Of a DNA stretch of 64,000 nucleotides, positions 15,622 through 50,552 are shown in pieces. Made by a program: the position numbers and the translations under genes. The stretch comes from Candidatus Omnitrophota bacterium (GTDB lineage: Bacteria; Omnitrophota; Gorgyraeia; Gygaellales; Profunditerraquicolaceae). The DNA lies in contig JBAZJY010000002.1 in the NCBI GenBank assembly GCA_041651115.1, positions 414,855-478,854 of the forward strand, written 5' to 3'. Positions within the stretch are counted from its first letter, which is position 1. Each line of letters starts with the position of its first letter. The notes below the pieces were generated by a model. That model had not been told where the DNA came from and made no database searches. It saw only the letters and a list, made by a program, of their open reading frames with translations.

Positions 15622-16548
15622 ATGGTTATCAGAGGCGTAGAAATTAAAGTTGTAAAAGCCGATATTACCGAATTAAAAGCCGATGCCATTGTCAATGCCG
15701 CAAATAATAAGCTGGTGATGGGCGGAGGGGTTGCCGGCGCCATCCGCAAAAAAGGCGGCAAGGAGATTGAAGAAGAGGCAATTGAGCAGGGCCCGATCAA
15801 GGTCGGCGATGCGGTTGCTACCCCGGCAGGAAGCTTGCCGGCTAAATTCGTCATTCATGCGGCAACCATGGGTATGGATTTTAAGACAGATGAGGTTAAG
15901 GTCAGGGCCGCGGCAAAAAGTGCGCTTTTGCTTGCTGAAAAATTAAAGCTGAAATCAATTGTTTTTCCGGCATTAGGCTGCGGCACCGGAGGGTTTTCTT
16001 TGCTGGCTGCTGCCAAGATCATGGCGCAGGAGGCATTCAGGGTGATCCGGCAGGGCAAGACCTGTTTAAAAGAAATAATCTTTTGCCTTTACGATCAGGA
16101 AGCCGTTGATACTTTTAATACCGGGGTGATTAAATATCTTGAACACATCACCGGTGAATTGCAGAACGGGCCGTTCGCTACGGTTGACGCGATCATTGAG
16201 ATTGACGCGGGAATAGTGATCATTAAAAGAAGCAATCCGCCGTTTGGCTGGGCGCTTCCCGGAGGTTTTCTTGATTTTGGGGAAAAATTAGAAGATGCGG
16301 TTGTGCGGGAGGCAAAAGAAGAGACCGGCCTGGATATTTACGACGTAAAACAATTCCATACCTATTCAGATCCCCGGCGCGATCCGCGCTTCCATACCAT
16401 TGCTACGGTTTTTACTGCCAAGGCAAAAGGCAAGCCCAGAGCAGGCGATGATGCTGCCGCGCTTAAGATCATTACGCAAAAAGATCTACCCAATATAGAG
16501 TTTGCCTTTGATCATAAGCAAATCTTACAGGATTATTTTCAGGTTTAG
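15622..16548 (+). CDS. Macro domain (ADP-ribose/Appr-1''-p processing) fused to a NUDIX hydrolase
   Basis: N-terminal macro motifs ([22 protein letters not shown]). The C-terminal half has a Nudix box ([23 protein letters not shown]). Confidence 0.85.
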
Positions 16549-16622
16549 GGACGGTTTTCAGCCAAGATTAAAAGTATCCCCTTCGGGGCACACTTTTTTC
16601 TTGGACTGAGAACCGTCCCTAT
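16548..16622. repeat. Family-B hairpin repeat, copy 1 (TAGGGACGGTT...AACCGTCCCTA arms; an internal small GC hairpin plus T-run terminator)
   Basis: gggacggttttcagccaag / cttggactgagaaccgtccc arms enclose tatccccttcggggcacactttttt. The left arm begins in the stop codon of the macro-NUDIX gene, as copy 2 at 19465 does with its upstream gene. Confidence 0.75.
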
Positions 16623-16625
16623 CTA

Positions 16626-16653
16626 TTGAAAATAGCATAAAATATGCTATACT
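16626..16653 (+). promoter_or_regulatory. Sigma70-like promoter (TTGAAA-16-TATACT) with an 8-bp perfect inverted repeat (ATAGCATA aaa TATGCTAT) in the spacer
   Basis: Read directly in the sequence. It sits about 7 nt upstream of the candidate sRNA start. Confidence 0.5.
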
Positions 16654-16659
16654 TTTAAT

Positions 16660-16807
16660 GTAAATTAGTTACTCACTGATAAAGGCAAACCCGGAGTAAT
16701 CCGGGGACGCAAAGCCAAGGGTCCTTTGAAAAAAGGACAGCCGGTTGCCAAAGGGGTAGAAGAGTCCGACTTTTATGAACCCTAAAGGCTAACCTTTAGG
16801 GTTTTTT
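16660..16807 (+). ncRNA. Candidate small RNA (about 150 nt) bounded by its own promoter and an intrinsic terminator, class unknown
   Basis: There is no ORF over 20 codons on the plus strand. Internal hairpins are cccggagtaatccggg and gtcctttgaaaaaaggac; it ends in gaaccctaaaggctaacctttagggtttttt. It lies between convergent genes. Confidence 0.45.
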
Positions 16808-16976
16808 ATTGGGATGGGCATGGGAGAGTGAGGGTAAGACGATGAGAAGAACGCAGAAAAAGATGCACAAAAGGGCAACGGCCAAAAGGCATCAGCGCAG
16901 AATGAGCTTTCTTGAAGCGTTGAGGCTGCATGGCGGGTTGCCGATGGCACTGTAGAATTAGGGTCGTTCCCGCGGT

Positions 16977-18854
16977 TCATCCTTCGCGCAGCTGCTTCTC
17001 GGCGTCTACGACATCGCGGTTAATGACCCTAATCGTTTCTTTTATCCTGTCTTTGAGGATATAAGAAACGACTTTGGCTTCATGGATCTCCCGCAATATC
17101 TGTATGCTCATCCGGAAATAGCGCACGACTTCACCTTCGTCGGTATCCGTAGCCTGCAGCGTCTTGTCAAAGCTCGTACCCCTTAGCCATGTCTCCACCG
17201 TATTGCTTAAATGAAAATACGGTTCTTTGCTAAAAGAATAAATGTGGAATTTGGTTTCTTTTTCTTTGATCTTGGCGTAAGTTTCCTCACAGATCCTTTT
17301 TACGTGGCGCATCGCCTTTGAGATATGCGGCGGCCGCTGGTTTTTCCGCGGTTCAAACACGCAGGCAGTAGTGACTACGCCCAATCCGAATTCATCCAGT
17401 TGCTCCAGCATTCCTGCCGCGTAAAGCTCTGAAAGTAAAAGCTCATATCCGTATATTGTCTTTGCGAATTCTCCCTTTTGCGAAAGCTCGCCGTTTTCTA
17501 TGTAACCCATATTTTTCAGGAGATTGAGTTTTGCCTCAATAAGGCGCAGCGCGTCTTTTTGCTCGTGCGGCTTTGACTGGTAATAATGCAAGGACAAGGG
17601 ATAGATCTTAAAAAGGTCATCTTTGTGTTTTTCATAAAGGTTAAGTATAGTCGCGTATGAGTTGTTGAGCTGGCTCTTGACTTCTTCGGGATTTGAATAA
17701 ATTATGCGTTTTACGTCGTCAGCCTGGACGCGGCTTAAATTAACGCGGGAATAAACAAAGCCTTCTTTATCAATGCCGCGCCTGCCTGCGCGTCCGGCCA
17801 TTTGGTAAAAATCACGGGTTTTTAAATTCCGCACGTAGCGGCCGTAAAATTTCCTTAATTCGTCAAAGATCACCGAGCGGCTGGGCATATTTATGCCAAG
17901 GGCAAAGGTTTCGGTGGTAAAGATCACTTTTAAGAGCCGGCTGGTAAAAAGCCGCTCTACGACTTCTTTTAAAGTCGGCAGCATCCCGGCATGATGATAG
18001 GCGATTCCCCGGCGGATAAGCGGGAACATATTCTGCGTGGTGCGGTCGTGTTTTAGGTCAAAGCGTTCGCAAAGGTCGTTGAACATTCGGATGATCTGTT
18101 TTTCTTCTTCGGGTTCAAGAAAATCAAAGCCGTGCATTTCAAAGGCGAGGTCTTCTGCGCGGCGCCTGCCAAAGACAAAATAAATACAGGGTAGGCCTTC
18201 TCTTTGGCGCAGGTAGTTTATCAGCATGCTTAATTTATTCGGCTTTGTTCCGCGCAGCCTCTTTAATATATGTACGTTATCCACGACTTCATTCTGGCAT
18301 TGGAAGAAGAAATGCAAGGGTACCGGCCGCTTATCTTCAATTACTACTTTTACCGGCTTGTTGTGGATAGACTCTATCCAGCCGGCGAACTGTTTGATGT
18401 TGGGAATAGTTGCGGAAAGCCCGAGCATGTTCATATGTTTAGGTAGAAAGATCAGGGATTCTTCCCAGACTGTGCCGCGCTCGTAGTTATCAATGTAATG
18501 GATCTCGTCAAAAATGATCCAGGAATACTGCTTGAGGCTGTCCGGTTCATCAAGCACTTTATTGCGGAAGATCTCCGTGGTCATGATCAGGACCGGCGCG
18601 TAAGGGTTGATTGAAACGTCGCCGGTGAGGATCCCGATATTATCTTTGAACTGGCCCTGGAAATCGCGGAATTTCTGGTTGGAAAGCGCCTTGATCGGCG
18701 CGGTATAGATCACCCCGCGCTGGTTCTCAATGCTGGTAGCGATGATATGCTCGGCAATCGCGGTTTTCCCGGCTCCGGTAGGTGCGGAAACGATCACGGA
18801 AAACCCCTGGTTGATGTAGTCGATTGCTTCCTGCTGGAACCGATCGTAGATCAT
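16977..18854 (-). CDS. Ski2/HelY-like DExH-box superfamily-2 helicase
   Basis: 625 aa. Motifs I (APTGAGKT), II (DEIH) and a SAT-like motif, then the helicase C-domain (QMAGRAGRRG) and a C-terminal Ski2-type DSHCT-like region. It is the only large minus-strand gene. Confidence 0.8.
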   Translation of the reverse strand: MIYDRFQQEAIDYINQGFSVIVSAPTGAGKTAIAEHIIATSIENQRGVIYTAPIKALSNQKFRDFQGQFKDNIGILTGDVSINPYAPVLIMTTEIFRNKVLDEPDSLKQYSWIIFDEIHYIDNYERGTVWEESLIFLPKHMNMLGLSATIPNIKQFAGWIESIHNKPVKVVIEDKRPVPLHFFFQCQNEVVDNVHILKRLRGTKPNKLSMLINYLRQREGLPCIYFVFGRRRAEDLAFEMHGFDFLEPEEEKQIIRMFNDLCERFDLKHDRTTQNMFPLIRRGIAYHHAGMLPTLKEVVERLFTSRLLKVIFTTETFALGINMPSRSVIFDELRKFYGRYVRNLKTRDFYQMAGRAGRRGIDKEGFVYSRVNLSRVQADDVKRIIYSNPEEVKSQLNNSYATILNLYEKHKDDLFKIYPLSLHYYQSKPHEQKDALRLIEAKLNLLKNMGYIENGELSQKGEFAKTIYGYELLLSELYAAGMLEQLDEFGLGVVTTACVFEPRKNQRPPHISKAMRHVKRICEETYAKIKEKETKFHIYSFSKEPYFHLSNTVETWLRGTSFDKTLQATDTDEGEVVRYFRMSIQILREIHEAKVVSYILKDRIKETIRVINRDVVDAEKQLREG

Positions 18855-18914: not shown

Positions 18915-19466
18915 ATGGGTTATGATATCGCCATAAATAAGTCGTGGGAAAGCCTGCTGGCGCTTAAACCAGCGGCCAGGCTTTCCGTAAAGCTGCTCGC
19001 CGATGAGTACGACATAGATATTGTCGGCAGGCGGGTGCTTTCGCTTTCCTGCAATGCTCCGGCAAAAGATTATACGGCAATATTGCTGTTGCATTATCTT
19101 GCTCAGAAAATAAAAGGATTGCCGCCCATTTCCGGGGAATGGCTGGATTTTAAAGAGCTTTCCGGAGTTGAGGGCTATCAGGATGCATTCCGTAAAAGGG
19201 TGATCGAACGGATAATCAGGAAATACGGCAGCCAGCCGGATTCTTTGTATTCTGTGCTTGAAAGGTTTCCCGGCAAAAAATCCGGCCAGGCAGATGTAAG
19301 CATCATTTTAGACGTATTCGAAGCTGTGCCTGCGCTGATCGAGCTATGGAAAGCAGATGAGGAATTCAGTCCCGAGGCAAATTTACTTTTTGACCGGAGT
19401 ATTACAAAGATATTCTGCACGGAAGATATTGTAGTCTTGGCGGAATTGATTGCTAATTATGTTTAG
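18915..19466 (+). CDS. Hypothetical protein (possibly DUF3786-like)
   Basis: 183-aa ORF; family assignment is from memory only and is weak. Confidence 0.4.
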   Translation: MGYDIAINKSWESLLALKPAARLSVKLLADEYDIDIVGRRVLSLSCNAPAKDYTAILLLHYLAQKIKGLPPISGEWLDFKELSGVEGYQDAFRKRVIERIIRKYGSQPDSLYSVLERFPGKKSGQADVSIILDVFEAVPALIELWKADEEFSPEANLLFDRSITKIFCTEDIVVLAELIANYV

Positions 19467-19543
19467 GGACGGTTCTGGGCCAAAGCGAAAAGTGTCCCTA
19501 AAAGCAGGGCATTTTTCCCTTTGTCCGCAGAACCGTCCCTAAT
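19465..19543. repeat. Family-B hairpin repeat, copy 2
   Basis: tagggacggttctgggccaaag ... ccgcagaaccgtcccta. It again starts in the stop codon (gtttag) of the upstream gene. Confidence 0.75.
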
Positions 19544-49639: not shown

Positions 49640-50552
49640 CATCGTTAGGGCGGCAGCCGGATTTTTTACCGCGGCATTATTATGCGCTGATCTTTCTTTT
49701 GCCGAAGTAATGCCGGTAGCAGCACCCGCAGAATCCGACCAGCAGATCAATGATTTTTCTTTTTCCGGTTACGGGGAAAGGGGTAAAAAAACCTGGGATA
49801 TCGCCGGTAAAAGCGCGGATATCTTTGCCGATAATATCAGGCTTAAGGAAATCACCGGGAATATGTACGGCGATGAAGATGTCAAGCTTACCGCGGAAAA
49901 AGGCGATTTCAATAAAGCCGAAGGAAAGATCCATTTGGAAGAAGACGTGGTGATCACCACTGAATCCGGGGCAAAGCTTACTACCGATTCCCTTGATTGG
50001 GACAGAAAGAACGACGTAGTGACCACGAAAGACAAGGTAAATATTGTCAGGGATAACCTGATTGCCGAGGCATTGGGCGCAATGGGCAAGCCCGCCTTAA
50101 GCAAGGTTAACCTGGAAAAAGAAGTAAAAGTGCAGATCATCCCGGAAAAAGATAAGGATCAACCGCCGGCAACCGAGGCAGAGAGAATAATCATTACCTG
50201 CGACGGGCCGCTGGCCATTGATTACGCGAAAAATTTTGCCACCTTCAGCAATAACGTAAGGGTGGATAGGGACGGTTCGCAGATCTACAGCGACACAATG
50301 GACGTTTATTTTAATACAGGGGCAAAGGCAGGCGCCCAGCCCGAAACAGCCGCTCAACCCGAGGCAGGCCTTTCTAACAGTAAGATTGAAAAGATCGTCT
50401 GCCGGGGAAACGTCAAGATCATCAGGGGGCCGAATGTTTCTTACAGCGATGAGGCAATATATTCCGCCCTGGAAAATAAGATCACGCTCTTAGGCAGGCC
50501 AAAACTCGTACTTTATTCTACGGAGGAAATGGATGCACCTTCTGGAAACTAA
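49629..50552 (+). CDS. LptA/OstA-family periplasmic LPS transport protein (possibly an LptC/LptA-like tandem)
   Basis: Signal peptide plus repeated OstA-N-like beta-jellyroll pattern. It sits directly upstream of lptB. Confidence 0.65.
   Translation: MRLSIVRAAAGFFTAALLCADLSFAEVMPVAAPAESDQQINDFSFSGYGERGKKTWDIAGKSADIFADNIRLKEITGNMYGDEDVKLTAEKGDFNKAEGKIHLEEDVVITTESGAKLTTDSLDWDRKNDVVTTKDKVNIVRDNLIAEALGAMGKPALSKVNLEKEVKVQIIPEKDKDQPPATEAERIIITCDGPLAIDYAKNFATFSNNVRVDRDGSQIYSDTMDVYFNTGAKAGAQPETAAQPEAGLSNSKIEKIVCRGNVKIIRGPNVSYSDEAIYSALENKITLLGRPKLVLYSTEEMDAPSGN

Follow-up and report, generated by a model that had tools for sequence, protein, structure and literature searches.

We analyzed a 64,000-nucleotide (nt) stretch of DNA from a Candidatus Omnitrophota bacterium (contig JBAZJY010000002.1; this whole stretch is referred to as the window, and positions are those within it). 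Our subject is a short element at 16626-16955, which lies between two large genes, for a Macro-NUDIX fusion protein and a Ski2-like helicase. The features of this element, listed below in their order along the DNA, likely represent a self-contained riboswitch unit. It would consist of a sigma-70 promoter, an aptamer of class I for cyclic di-GMP (c-di-GMP), a terminator platform and, behind a Shine-Dalgarno sequence, a 37-codon gene that encodes a basic, predicted helical protein, and it would work as an OFF switch. The element is of an ordinary type in an unusual host, Candidatus Omnitrophota.

16626-16653, + strand: sigma-70-type promoter (-35 box TTGAAA at 16626-16631, 16-nt spacer, TG at 16645-16646, -10 box TATACT at 16648-16653)
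16632-16650, no strand: perfect 8-bp inverted repeat within the promoter spacer, ATAGCATA (16632-16639), AAA as a 3-nt loop, TATGCTAT (16643-16650)
16670-16758, + strand: c-di-GMP-I (GEMM-I) aptamer, from the Rfam RF03167 match and the pairing in five loci
16670-16758, + strand: extended P1 of the aptamer, UACUC (16670-16674) and UG (16677-16678) pairing with CA (16749-16750) and GGGUA (16754-16758)
16684, 16711 and 16748, + strand: predicted ligand-contact bases G20, A47 and C92, respectively, from alignments to the GGC and UAU consensus
16685-16710, + strand: P1a with a GUAA tetraloop
16713-16746, + strand: P1b
16747-16789, + strand: candidate anti-terminator, GCC...GGGGU (16747-16757) with ACCCU...GGC (16779-16789)
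16777-16807, + strand: intrinsic terminator (the expression platform), with a 12-bp stem at 16777-16804 by terminator scan; GAACCCTAAAGG-CTAA-CCTTTAGGGTTT and then a T-run
16830-16834, + strand: Shine-Dalgarno sequence GAGGG, 22 nt after the T-run and 7 nt before the ATG
16842-16955, + strand: 37-codon open reading frame (ORF) MRRTQKKMHKRATAKRHQRRMSFLEALRLHGGLPMAL, from its orthologs and from its ratio of nonsynonymous to synonymous substitution (dN/dS)

The element had been described before, from its letters and ORFs, as a stand-alone small RNA (sRNA), and several parts of that sequence-only reading hold. The TTGAAA-16-TATACT promoter is present and conserved in four other loci, as are the ORF-free structured RNA and the intrinsic terminator that follow it, and the large flanking genes are indeed convergent, Macro-NUDIX on the + strand and helicase on the - strand. 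Other parts do not. The claim that the RNA is not a 5' untranslated region (UTR) overlooked the Shine-Dalgarno sequence and the conserved 37-codon ORF beyond the terminator, and what had been taken for a stand-alone sRNA is a c-di-GMP-I-clan riboswitch before a conserved small protein gene. The earlier reading had itself proposed an Rfam/Infernal scan and foreseen that a hit would reclassify the RNA. The scan gave such a hit, and a candidate novel sRNA was in this way resolved into a known class of element.

Aptamer identity, fold and predicted ligand

A scan of the whole 64-kb window against Rfam at gathering thresholds returned one match, on the + strand at 16675-16753, which belongs to the c-di-GMP-I clan (CL00126) of riboswitch aptamers. 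The top model was that of the variant c-di-GMP-I-GGC (RF03167), matched with 68.4 bits (E 4.6e-14; gathering score 59) and covered over model positions 1-80/80. Equivalent clan matches were observed in L082, L083, L084, L087 and L088, and the orthologs scored 67.6-74.1 bits. The relatives of the window are Candidatus Omnitrophota metagenome-assembled genomes. Promoter, aptamer, terminator and ORF were found together in four other loci, on Omnitrophota or related metagenome contigs, one of which ends before the ORF.

The 156-nt stretch of RNA folds at -54.5 kcal/mol, with a z of -4.35 versus shuffles. A covariance model, R1, was built from five sequences (the window, L082, L084, L087 and L088) and comprises the extended P1, P1a, P1b and the terminator. 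When the five sequences were realigned to R1, 98% of cells were in standard pairs. The comparative alignment, which the sequence-only reading had also suggested, revealed compensatory double changes in 5 pairs (1 in P1a, 1 in P1b, 3 in the terminator), and two outer-P1 pairs alternate between wobble and Watson-Crick. The observed pairing and covariation were reached by 0/500 column shuffles, and sliding the pairing partners by 1-3 columns left a paired fraction of 31-60%. These data establish the identity of the aptamer and its structure. The GUAA loop at 16696-16699 is a GNRA tetraloop on P1a that is present in all orthologs and may dock into a receptor in P1b. A conserved 5' anti-P1 hairpin (AUUAGU/ACUGAU) was considered and rejected, being predicted in the window and L088 and not kept in L082, L084 and L087.

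The variant label of the top model requires some care. The RF03167 consensus reads GACGCGAA, and the window and its orthologs read GACGCAAA (GGCGCAAA in L087). The window has GACGC-A-AAGCC where the RF03167 model has its defining GACGC-G-AA, so that position 47 is A and not G in the window and all orthologs, despite scores of 67.6-68.4 bits against 59. The aptamer of L088 (L088 953-1032) scores best on a different variant model, c-di-GMP-I-UAU (RF03168), with 74.1 bits against a gathering score of 65.9, and here positions 20 and 92 are G and C, not U and U, in L088 as in the window. What separates the GGC and UAU models are the columns of G20, A47 and C92 in the numbering of the Vc2 riboswitch; this is presumably also the sense of the variant names, which we take from the consensus lines of the models. 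In Vc2 of V. cholerae these three nucleotides contact c-di-GMP (PMC5888326, PMC11218506). All five orthologs carry G20, A47 and C92.

Between orthologs whose aptamers are distinguished by nothing more than the P1b loop and two bases of the 5' flank, the best model flips from GGC to UAU. As the canonical bases are kept in both, the variant labels mirror overall sequence similarity to the variant models and not the binding site. The presence of canonical G20, A47 and C92 makes c-di-GMP the predicted ligand. The cyclic AMP-GMP (c-AMP-GMP) subtype, GEMM-Ib, reportedly has A20, and G at that position (G16684) disfavors it. The c-AMP-GMP riboswitch class (Kellenberger 2015, Nelson 2015) is cited in PMC7266159. 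The aptamer should not be annotated as a GGC or UAU variant. This is a pitfall for annotation more generally, as orthologs with canonical binding bases pass the gathering thresholds of two variant families, and automatic pipelines would mislabel the aptamer as a variant of unknown ligand.

Expression platform and the 37-codon gene

The terminator is kept in all five loci, where its 3 compensatory pairs are accompanied by a paired A:T deletion in L087. Its stem begins 19 nt past the extended P1 and has no nucleotide in common with the aptamer. As terminator and aptamer share no nucleotides, ligand binding cannot sequester the terminator, and ON-switch logic was ruled out on this ground. The candidate anti-terminator provides a different connection between the two. 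Its strands are C92 with the P1 3' strand on one side and the terminator 5' arm with the first loop base on the other, and it excludes both P1 and the terminator.

We folded the nascent transcript of each locus up to the terminator loop, that is, cut before the terminator 3' arm, either freely or with P1 enforced. The energies of the anti-terminator fold and of the fold with P1 enforced were as follows.

Window: -43.4 versus -31.3 kcal/mol; anti-terminator in the unconstrained minimum
L082: -39.6 versus -33.8 kcal/mol; anti-terminator in the unconstrained minimum
L088: -42.6 versus -33.0 kcal/mol; anti-terminator in the unconstrained minimum
L084: -34.5 versus -33.4 kcal/mol; marginal
L087: -36.6 versus -39.7 kcal/mol; anti-terminator disfavored

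The anti-terminator is thus in the minimum-energy nascent fold of 3/5 orthologs. The architecture and this predicted alternative pairing point to an OFF switch. At low c-di-GMP, the GCC that includes C92 and the P1 strand GGGGU would pair with the terminator 5' arm, and with the anti-terminator formed, polymerase would read through and the small protein would be made. At high c-di-GMP, the ligand would lock the extended P1, the anti-terminator would be blocked and the terminator arm freed, and the 12-bp terminator would form, so that transcription would stop after ~150 nt.

What lies beyond the terminator is a gene that was uncalled by gene finders in the source contig. The Shine-Dalgarno sequence before it has GGAGG-like counterparts in the same place in L082, L087 and L088. 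There is no room for a second promoter, because only 34 nt separate the T-run from the ATG in the window. Orthologs of 38 amino acids (aa) are encoded in L082 (where the gene was called, as P0121), L087 and L088. Among the four orthologs, dN/dS is 0.09-0.17 overall (six pairwise comparisons) and 0.00-0.19 in the C-terminal 17 codons, with values of <=0.05 there in 5/6 comparisons. The C-terminal residues are invariant but for Ser/Gly at codon 23, and between L087 and L088 (Gly at that codon in both) the C-terminal half shows 0 amino-acid and 6 synonymous changes. The other frames contain stops or vary freely, and the spacer between terminator and Shine-Dalgarno sequence is unconserved, unlike the ORF. 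Judged by this pattern of substitution, the small ORF is protein-coding and under purifying selection, and at the level of the alignments promoter, terminator and ORF are conserved as one block. The small ORF, and not the helicase on the opposite strand, is probably the main target of the riboswitch.

In L087 (1640-1745) the spacer between terminator and Shine-Dalgarno sequence carries a 66-nt insertion with two hairpins (AAACTTACG...CGTAAGTTT and CCCC...GGGG). This insertion may add another level of regulation, or it may be a small repeat that has inserted there.

The small protein is basic, with 10 Lys/Arg and 2 His in its first 21 residues, and has no hydrophobic segment. In the AlphaFold2 prediction, residues 2-29 form a single helix, and the mean predicted local distance difference test (pLDDT) score is 80. 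There were no matches in Pfam, NCBIfam or PDB, an exact look-up of the 37-aa protein found it not on record, and a word-index search of 5.8 billion clusters together with a HMMER profile search of 1.84 billion representatives gave only P0121 as a homolog. Matches to PDB entries and to YonT were dismissed as noise (E >= 0.3). We also rejected a resemblance of the N-terminus to ribosomal protein L34 (MKRTFQP..KR..HGFR.RM), since there is no Pfam or NCBIfam match at E <= 10 and the C-terminus is unrelated. From its composition, our guess is that the small protein binds nucleic acid or the ribosome.

Promoter, neighboring genes and distribution

In a consensus scan the promoter matches 10/12 positions and also has the TG of an extended -10 element; transcription would start near 16660. 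The match by itself is no better than chance, with 2 such promoters in 1 kb versus 1.4 expected. Comparison of the loci is more informative. TTGAAAA and AAAATATGnTATACTTTTA are invariant in a four-locus alignment, and in L084 they are intact but for one spacer base. The conserved block starts exactly at the -35 box in all five loci, and the sequence 5' of the -35 box is unrelated. The upstream neighbor is a long hairpin in the window, a gene for a 181-185-aa secreted C1q-like protein with its own terminator in L082 and L084, and an insertion sequence (IS) transposase in L087; in L088 the stop codon of the Macro-NUDIX gene falls inside the promoter spacer of the riboswitch. We infer that the riboswitch unit has its own promoter, because the block from the -35 box onward is conserved while the upstream context differs in every locus.

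Some of these upstream contexts were observed more closely. The gene for the 181-185-aa product lies between the Macro-NUDIX gene and the riboswitch promoter (L082 4476-5033, L084 4672-5217) and is absent from the window; its product has a hydrophobic N-terminus and weak, sub-threshold similarity to C1q and BclA_C. The transposase of L087 (276-1505), identified by eye from motifs, is a putative 409-aa protein of DDE/integrase type. It is directly 5' of the riboswitch promoter and replaces the Macro-NUDIX neighborhood. In L088 (880-920) the -35 box lies within the last Macro-NUDIX codons and the stop codon in the spacer, with no terminator between them, and read-through from upstream could also feed the riboswitch there.

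The neighbors of the unit in the window are the following.

15622-16548, + strand: Macro-NUDIX fusion gene, flanking the riboswitch unit
16546-16621, no strand: long imperfect hairpin (36-nt arms, 75% complementary) that encloses a GC hairpin and has T-runs on both strands
16977-18854, - strand: Ski2-like helicase gene (DEAD, Helicase_C and DSHCT by Pfam), convergent

The hairpin at 16546 starts on the stop codon of the Macro-NUDIX gene and is outside the conserved riboswitch unit. It likely terminates transcription in both directions and would insulate the unit from the upstream gene. Its arm motif, GAGAACCGTCCC, recurs at 19466-19539 and 50269-50280. The repeated hairpin, TAGGGACGGTTyT...AGAACCGTCCCTA with an inner GC hairpin and T-runs, was observed at 16546-16621 and 19463-19541 of the window and at 4929-5006 of L006, where it occupies the whole gap between the Macro-NUDIX and helicase genes. 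All three full copies (16546, 19463 and L006) begin on the TAG that ends the preceding gene, and 50269-50280 is a half-site only. The repeated hairpin looks like a clade-specific bidirectional terminator or an element similar to repetitive extragenic palindromes (REP). Matches of 16540-16627 to plant and animal microRNAs in Rfam were rejected as artefacts of the long hairpin.

On the other side, the helicase is a 625-aa protein with a C-terminal DSHCT (NUC185) domain, and its gene adjoins that of the Macro-NUDIX fusion across many Omnitrophota. DSHCT (NUC185) is typical of eukaryotic and archaeal Ski2/Mtr4 helicases. Only 21 nt lie between the stop codons of the small ORF and the helicase, a tail-to-tail order that is kept in all four loci reaching that far. 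On the + strand after the small ORF there is no terminator-like site before 18033 (~1 kb), and read-through from the riboswitch unit would run antisense into the 3' end of the helicase gene, possibly as a side-effect. In the other direction, helicase transcripts find no terminator in the 21-nt gap after the helicase stop codon. Terminator-like sites on the - strand were observed at 16690-16705 and 16721-16738, corresponding to P1a and the tip of P1b read in reverse complement (CCCGGATTACTCCGGG then TTTGCCTTTA). The helicase transcripts may end inside the riboswitch; their 3' UTR would then be antisense to the whole of the small ORF.

The convergent Macro-NUDIX/helicase arrangement is kept in ~70 species-level relatives, where the gap is mostly 0-90 bp, compared with 428 bp in the window. 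A regular-expression search found the riboswitch absent from 80 syntenic Omnitrophota loci at ~70% amino-acid identity, and Rfam returned no riboswitch from the 17 loci in which the gap is larger. Model R1 finds the element in only 5/87 sources. The closest relatives, L082/L083 and L084 (80-81% Macro-NUDIX identity), which were obtained by protein look-ups, carry the riboswitch; L087 and L088 were obtained by a metagenome scan with the small protein. As the syntenic loci at ~70% identity have none, the element is restricted to a narrow clade of Omnitrophota.

Competing explanations and known systems

Several points weigh against the reading of the unit as an OFF switch in which c-di-GMP controls the small gene. 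The anti-terminator, with 3 + 5 bp flanking a 3x3 loop, is weak and disfavored in L087, and no covariation backs it, its aptamer side being invariant. The terminator is strong, so most transcripts may stop whatever the ligand. The structural case draws on only five loci (four with the ORF) that are closely related, with few covariations, and the alignment had itself been fitted to the model. Clan competition masks the score of the canonical model, RF01051: the gathering-mode output of Rfam left out two lower-scoring matches of the same clan, presumably RF01051 and RF03168, whose scores were not displayed. A motif scan of the ORFs in the 64-kb window found no GGDEF motif. The same ORFs yielded nothing convincing for EAL or PilZ, as the one loose EAL match was chorismate synthase.

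Four other explanations were weighed, two of which concern single parts of the unit. The sequence-only reading was correct that a perfect 8-bp repeat lies at 16632-16650, exactly in the spacer of the window promoter, and had read it as an operator that places the promoter under repressor control. Among the loci compared, only the window has the repeat in perfect form. In the four orthologs (L082, L084, L087 and L088) the 5' half takes the forms ATACGCCA, ATACCCGA, ACCACGCA and AGCGCATA, and 3-5/8 of the pairs survive although the promoter boxes are invariant; the 3' half, TATGCTAT, belongs to the conserved TATGnTATACT extended -10 element. With a 5' half that varies and a 3' half that is simply part of the extended -10, repressor control through the palindrome is not supported. 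Perfect 8-bp inverted repeats with a short spacer occur at 17 places in the window (23 before merging), and ~9 would be expected by chance per 64 kb. We judge the palindrome to be fortuitous, and an operator at this position highly improbable. To a similar degree we doubt that the aptamer is a variant riboswitch with a different ligand, as the GGC and UAU labels would suggest. That the best Rfam models are variant families, both above their gathering scores, speaks for such a variant, but the defining bases of both variants are absent and the orthologs flip between the models with the same binding-site bases.

The other two explanations concern what the RNA is for. It could be a stand-alone riboswitch RNA, whose ~150-nt product would be a sponge or store for c-di-GMP or an sRNA acting in trans, after the example of merRNA, a c-di-GMP-I riboswitch without a regulated ORF (PMC3627812). 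A terminator with a 12-bp stem and a 6-U tract facing a weak anti-terminator, and a strong promoter of its own with an extended -10 element, would fit such an RNA. However, merRNA is defined by having no conserved downstream ORF, and here a Shine-Dalgarno sequence and an ORF follow within 35 nt, with purifying selection on the ORF in all loci long enough to include it. We therefore consider a purely stand-alone RNA improbable, and the terminated ~150-nt RNA could still have a secondary role. About equally improbable is an antisense-acting riboswitch, in which a c-di-GMP-controlled read-through RNA would lower expression of the convergent helicase. The closeness of the two stop codons, the ~1 kb of + strand lacking a terminator-like site and the conserved tail-to-tail arrangement are in its favor, as is the finding that, of all riboswitch classes, the one for c-di-GMP shows the strongest enrichment in antisense positions (152/2,706, P = 4.6e-62; PMC9943018). 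By the positional definition of that study (directed against a gene and within 500 nt of its 3' end), the aptamer, which ends at 16758, is antisense to the helicase, whose stop is at 16977, with the sense ORF intervening. Yet that coding ORF, between riboswitch and helicase, suffices to explain the unit, the arrangement may reflect a single insertion in a narrow clade, and ~80 relatives keep the Macro-NUDIX/helicase synteny without a riboswitch, which argues that the helicase is not generally in need of such control. A broader version, to which we would give slightly more credit while still regarding it as unlikely, is that the Arg/Lys-rich 37-aa helical peptide is a new c-di-GMP-repressed output in Omnitrophota and that read-through at low c-di-GMP is also antisense to the helicase, coupling RNA-helicase activity to c-di-GMP; the peptide itself might then target RNA or the helicase. 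Overall, our data favor the self-contained OFF switch with the small gene as its target, and it is this reading that we compare with known systems.

The aptamer resembles Vc2 and the parent family RF01051 in having P1, P1a with a GNRA loop and P1b, in its junctions (AAAGGCAAAC, GGGACGCAAAGCC and UGCC), in the G20/A47/C92 contacts, and in its position in a 5' leader that is followed by an intrinsic terminator. It differs in its Omnitrophota host, in having a 37-codon orphan ORF as the regulated gene, and in that Rfam presumably ranks variant models above the parent model, the score of the latter being masked by clan competition. To RF03167 and RF03168 it is close enough in overall sequence to exceed their gathering scores, and it is without the G47 of GGC and without the U20 and U92 of UAU.

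Two other systems share its setting. The merRNA of Bdellovibrio bacteriovorus is a riboswitch-containing sRNA that has been proposed to be a c-di-GMP sponge (PMC3627812). Both RNAs have a c-di-GMP-I aptamer in a short, independently transcribed intergenic RNA, but merRNA lacks a conserved downstream ORF, and here there is an ORF with a Shine-Dalgarno sequence and purifying selection. Like antisense riboswitches (PMC9943018), such as the B12 riboswitch/AspocR of Listeria, the element faces the 3' end of a convergent gene at <500 nt with no terminator between; it differs from them in the sense coding target that intervenes, and the antisense effect is putative.

The closest likeness in organization is found in C. 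difficile, where the class I riboswitches Cdi1_6 and Cdi1_8 to Cdi1_11 lie before the unannotated CD1980.2 family of small proteins and transcription is terminated prematurely by c-di-GMP (bioRxiv 10.64898/2026.06.10.731418). In both cases a class I riboswitch is followed by a short unannotated ORF for a protein without domains or outside homologs, and the OFF logic that we propose matches the premature termination reported for C. difficile. The CD1980.2 proteins are 58 aa long, membrane-associated, multicopy and linked to sporulation (bioRxiv 10.64898/2026.06.10.731418), whereas the Omnitrophota protein is 37-38 aa long, highly basic, not hydrophobic, and encoded once per locus. Homology to the CD1980.2 family was not found in the profile search of 1.84 billion representative proteins, which gave only P0121. 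The element described here would place a c-di-GMP riboswitch in the uncultivated phylum Omnitrophota, with an uncalled and strongly conserved 37-codon gene as its probable target, and would be, after C. difficile, a second and unrelated case in which a tiny protein is under the control of a c-di-GMP riboswitch of class I.

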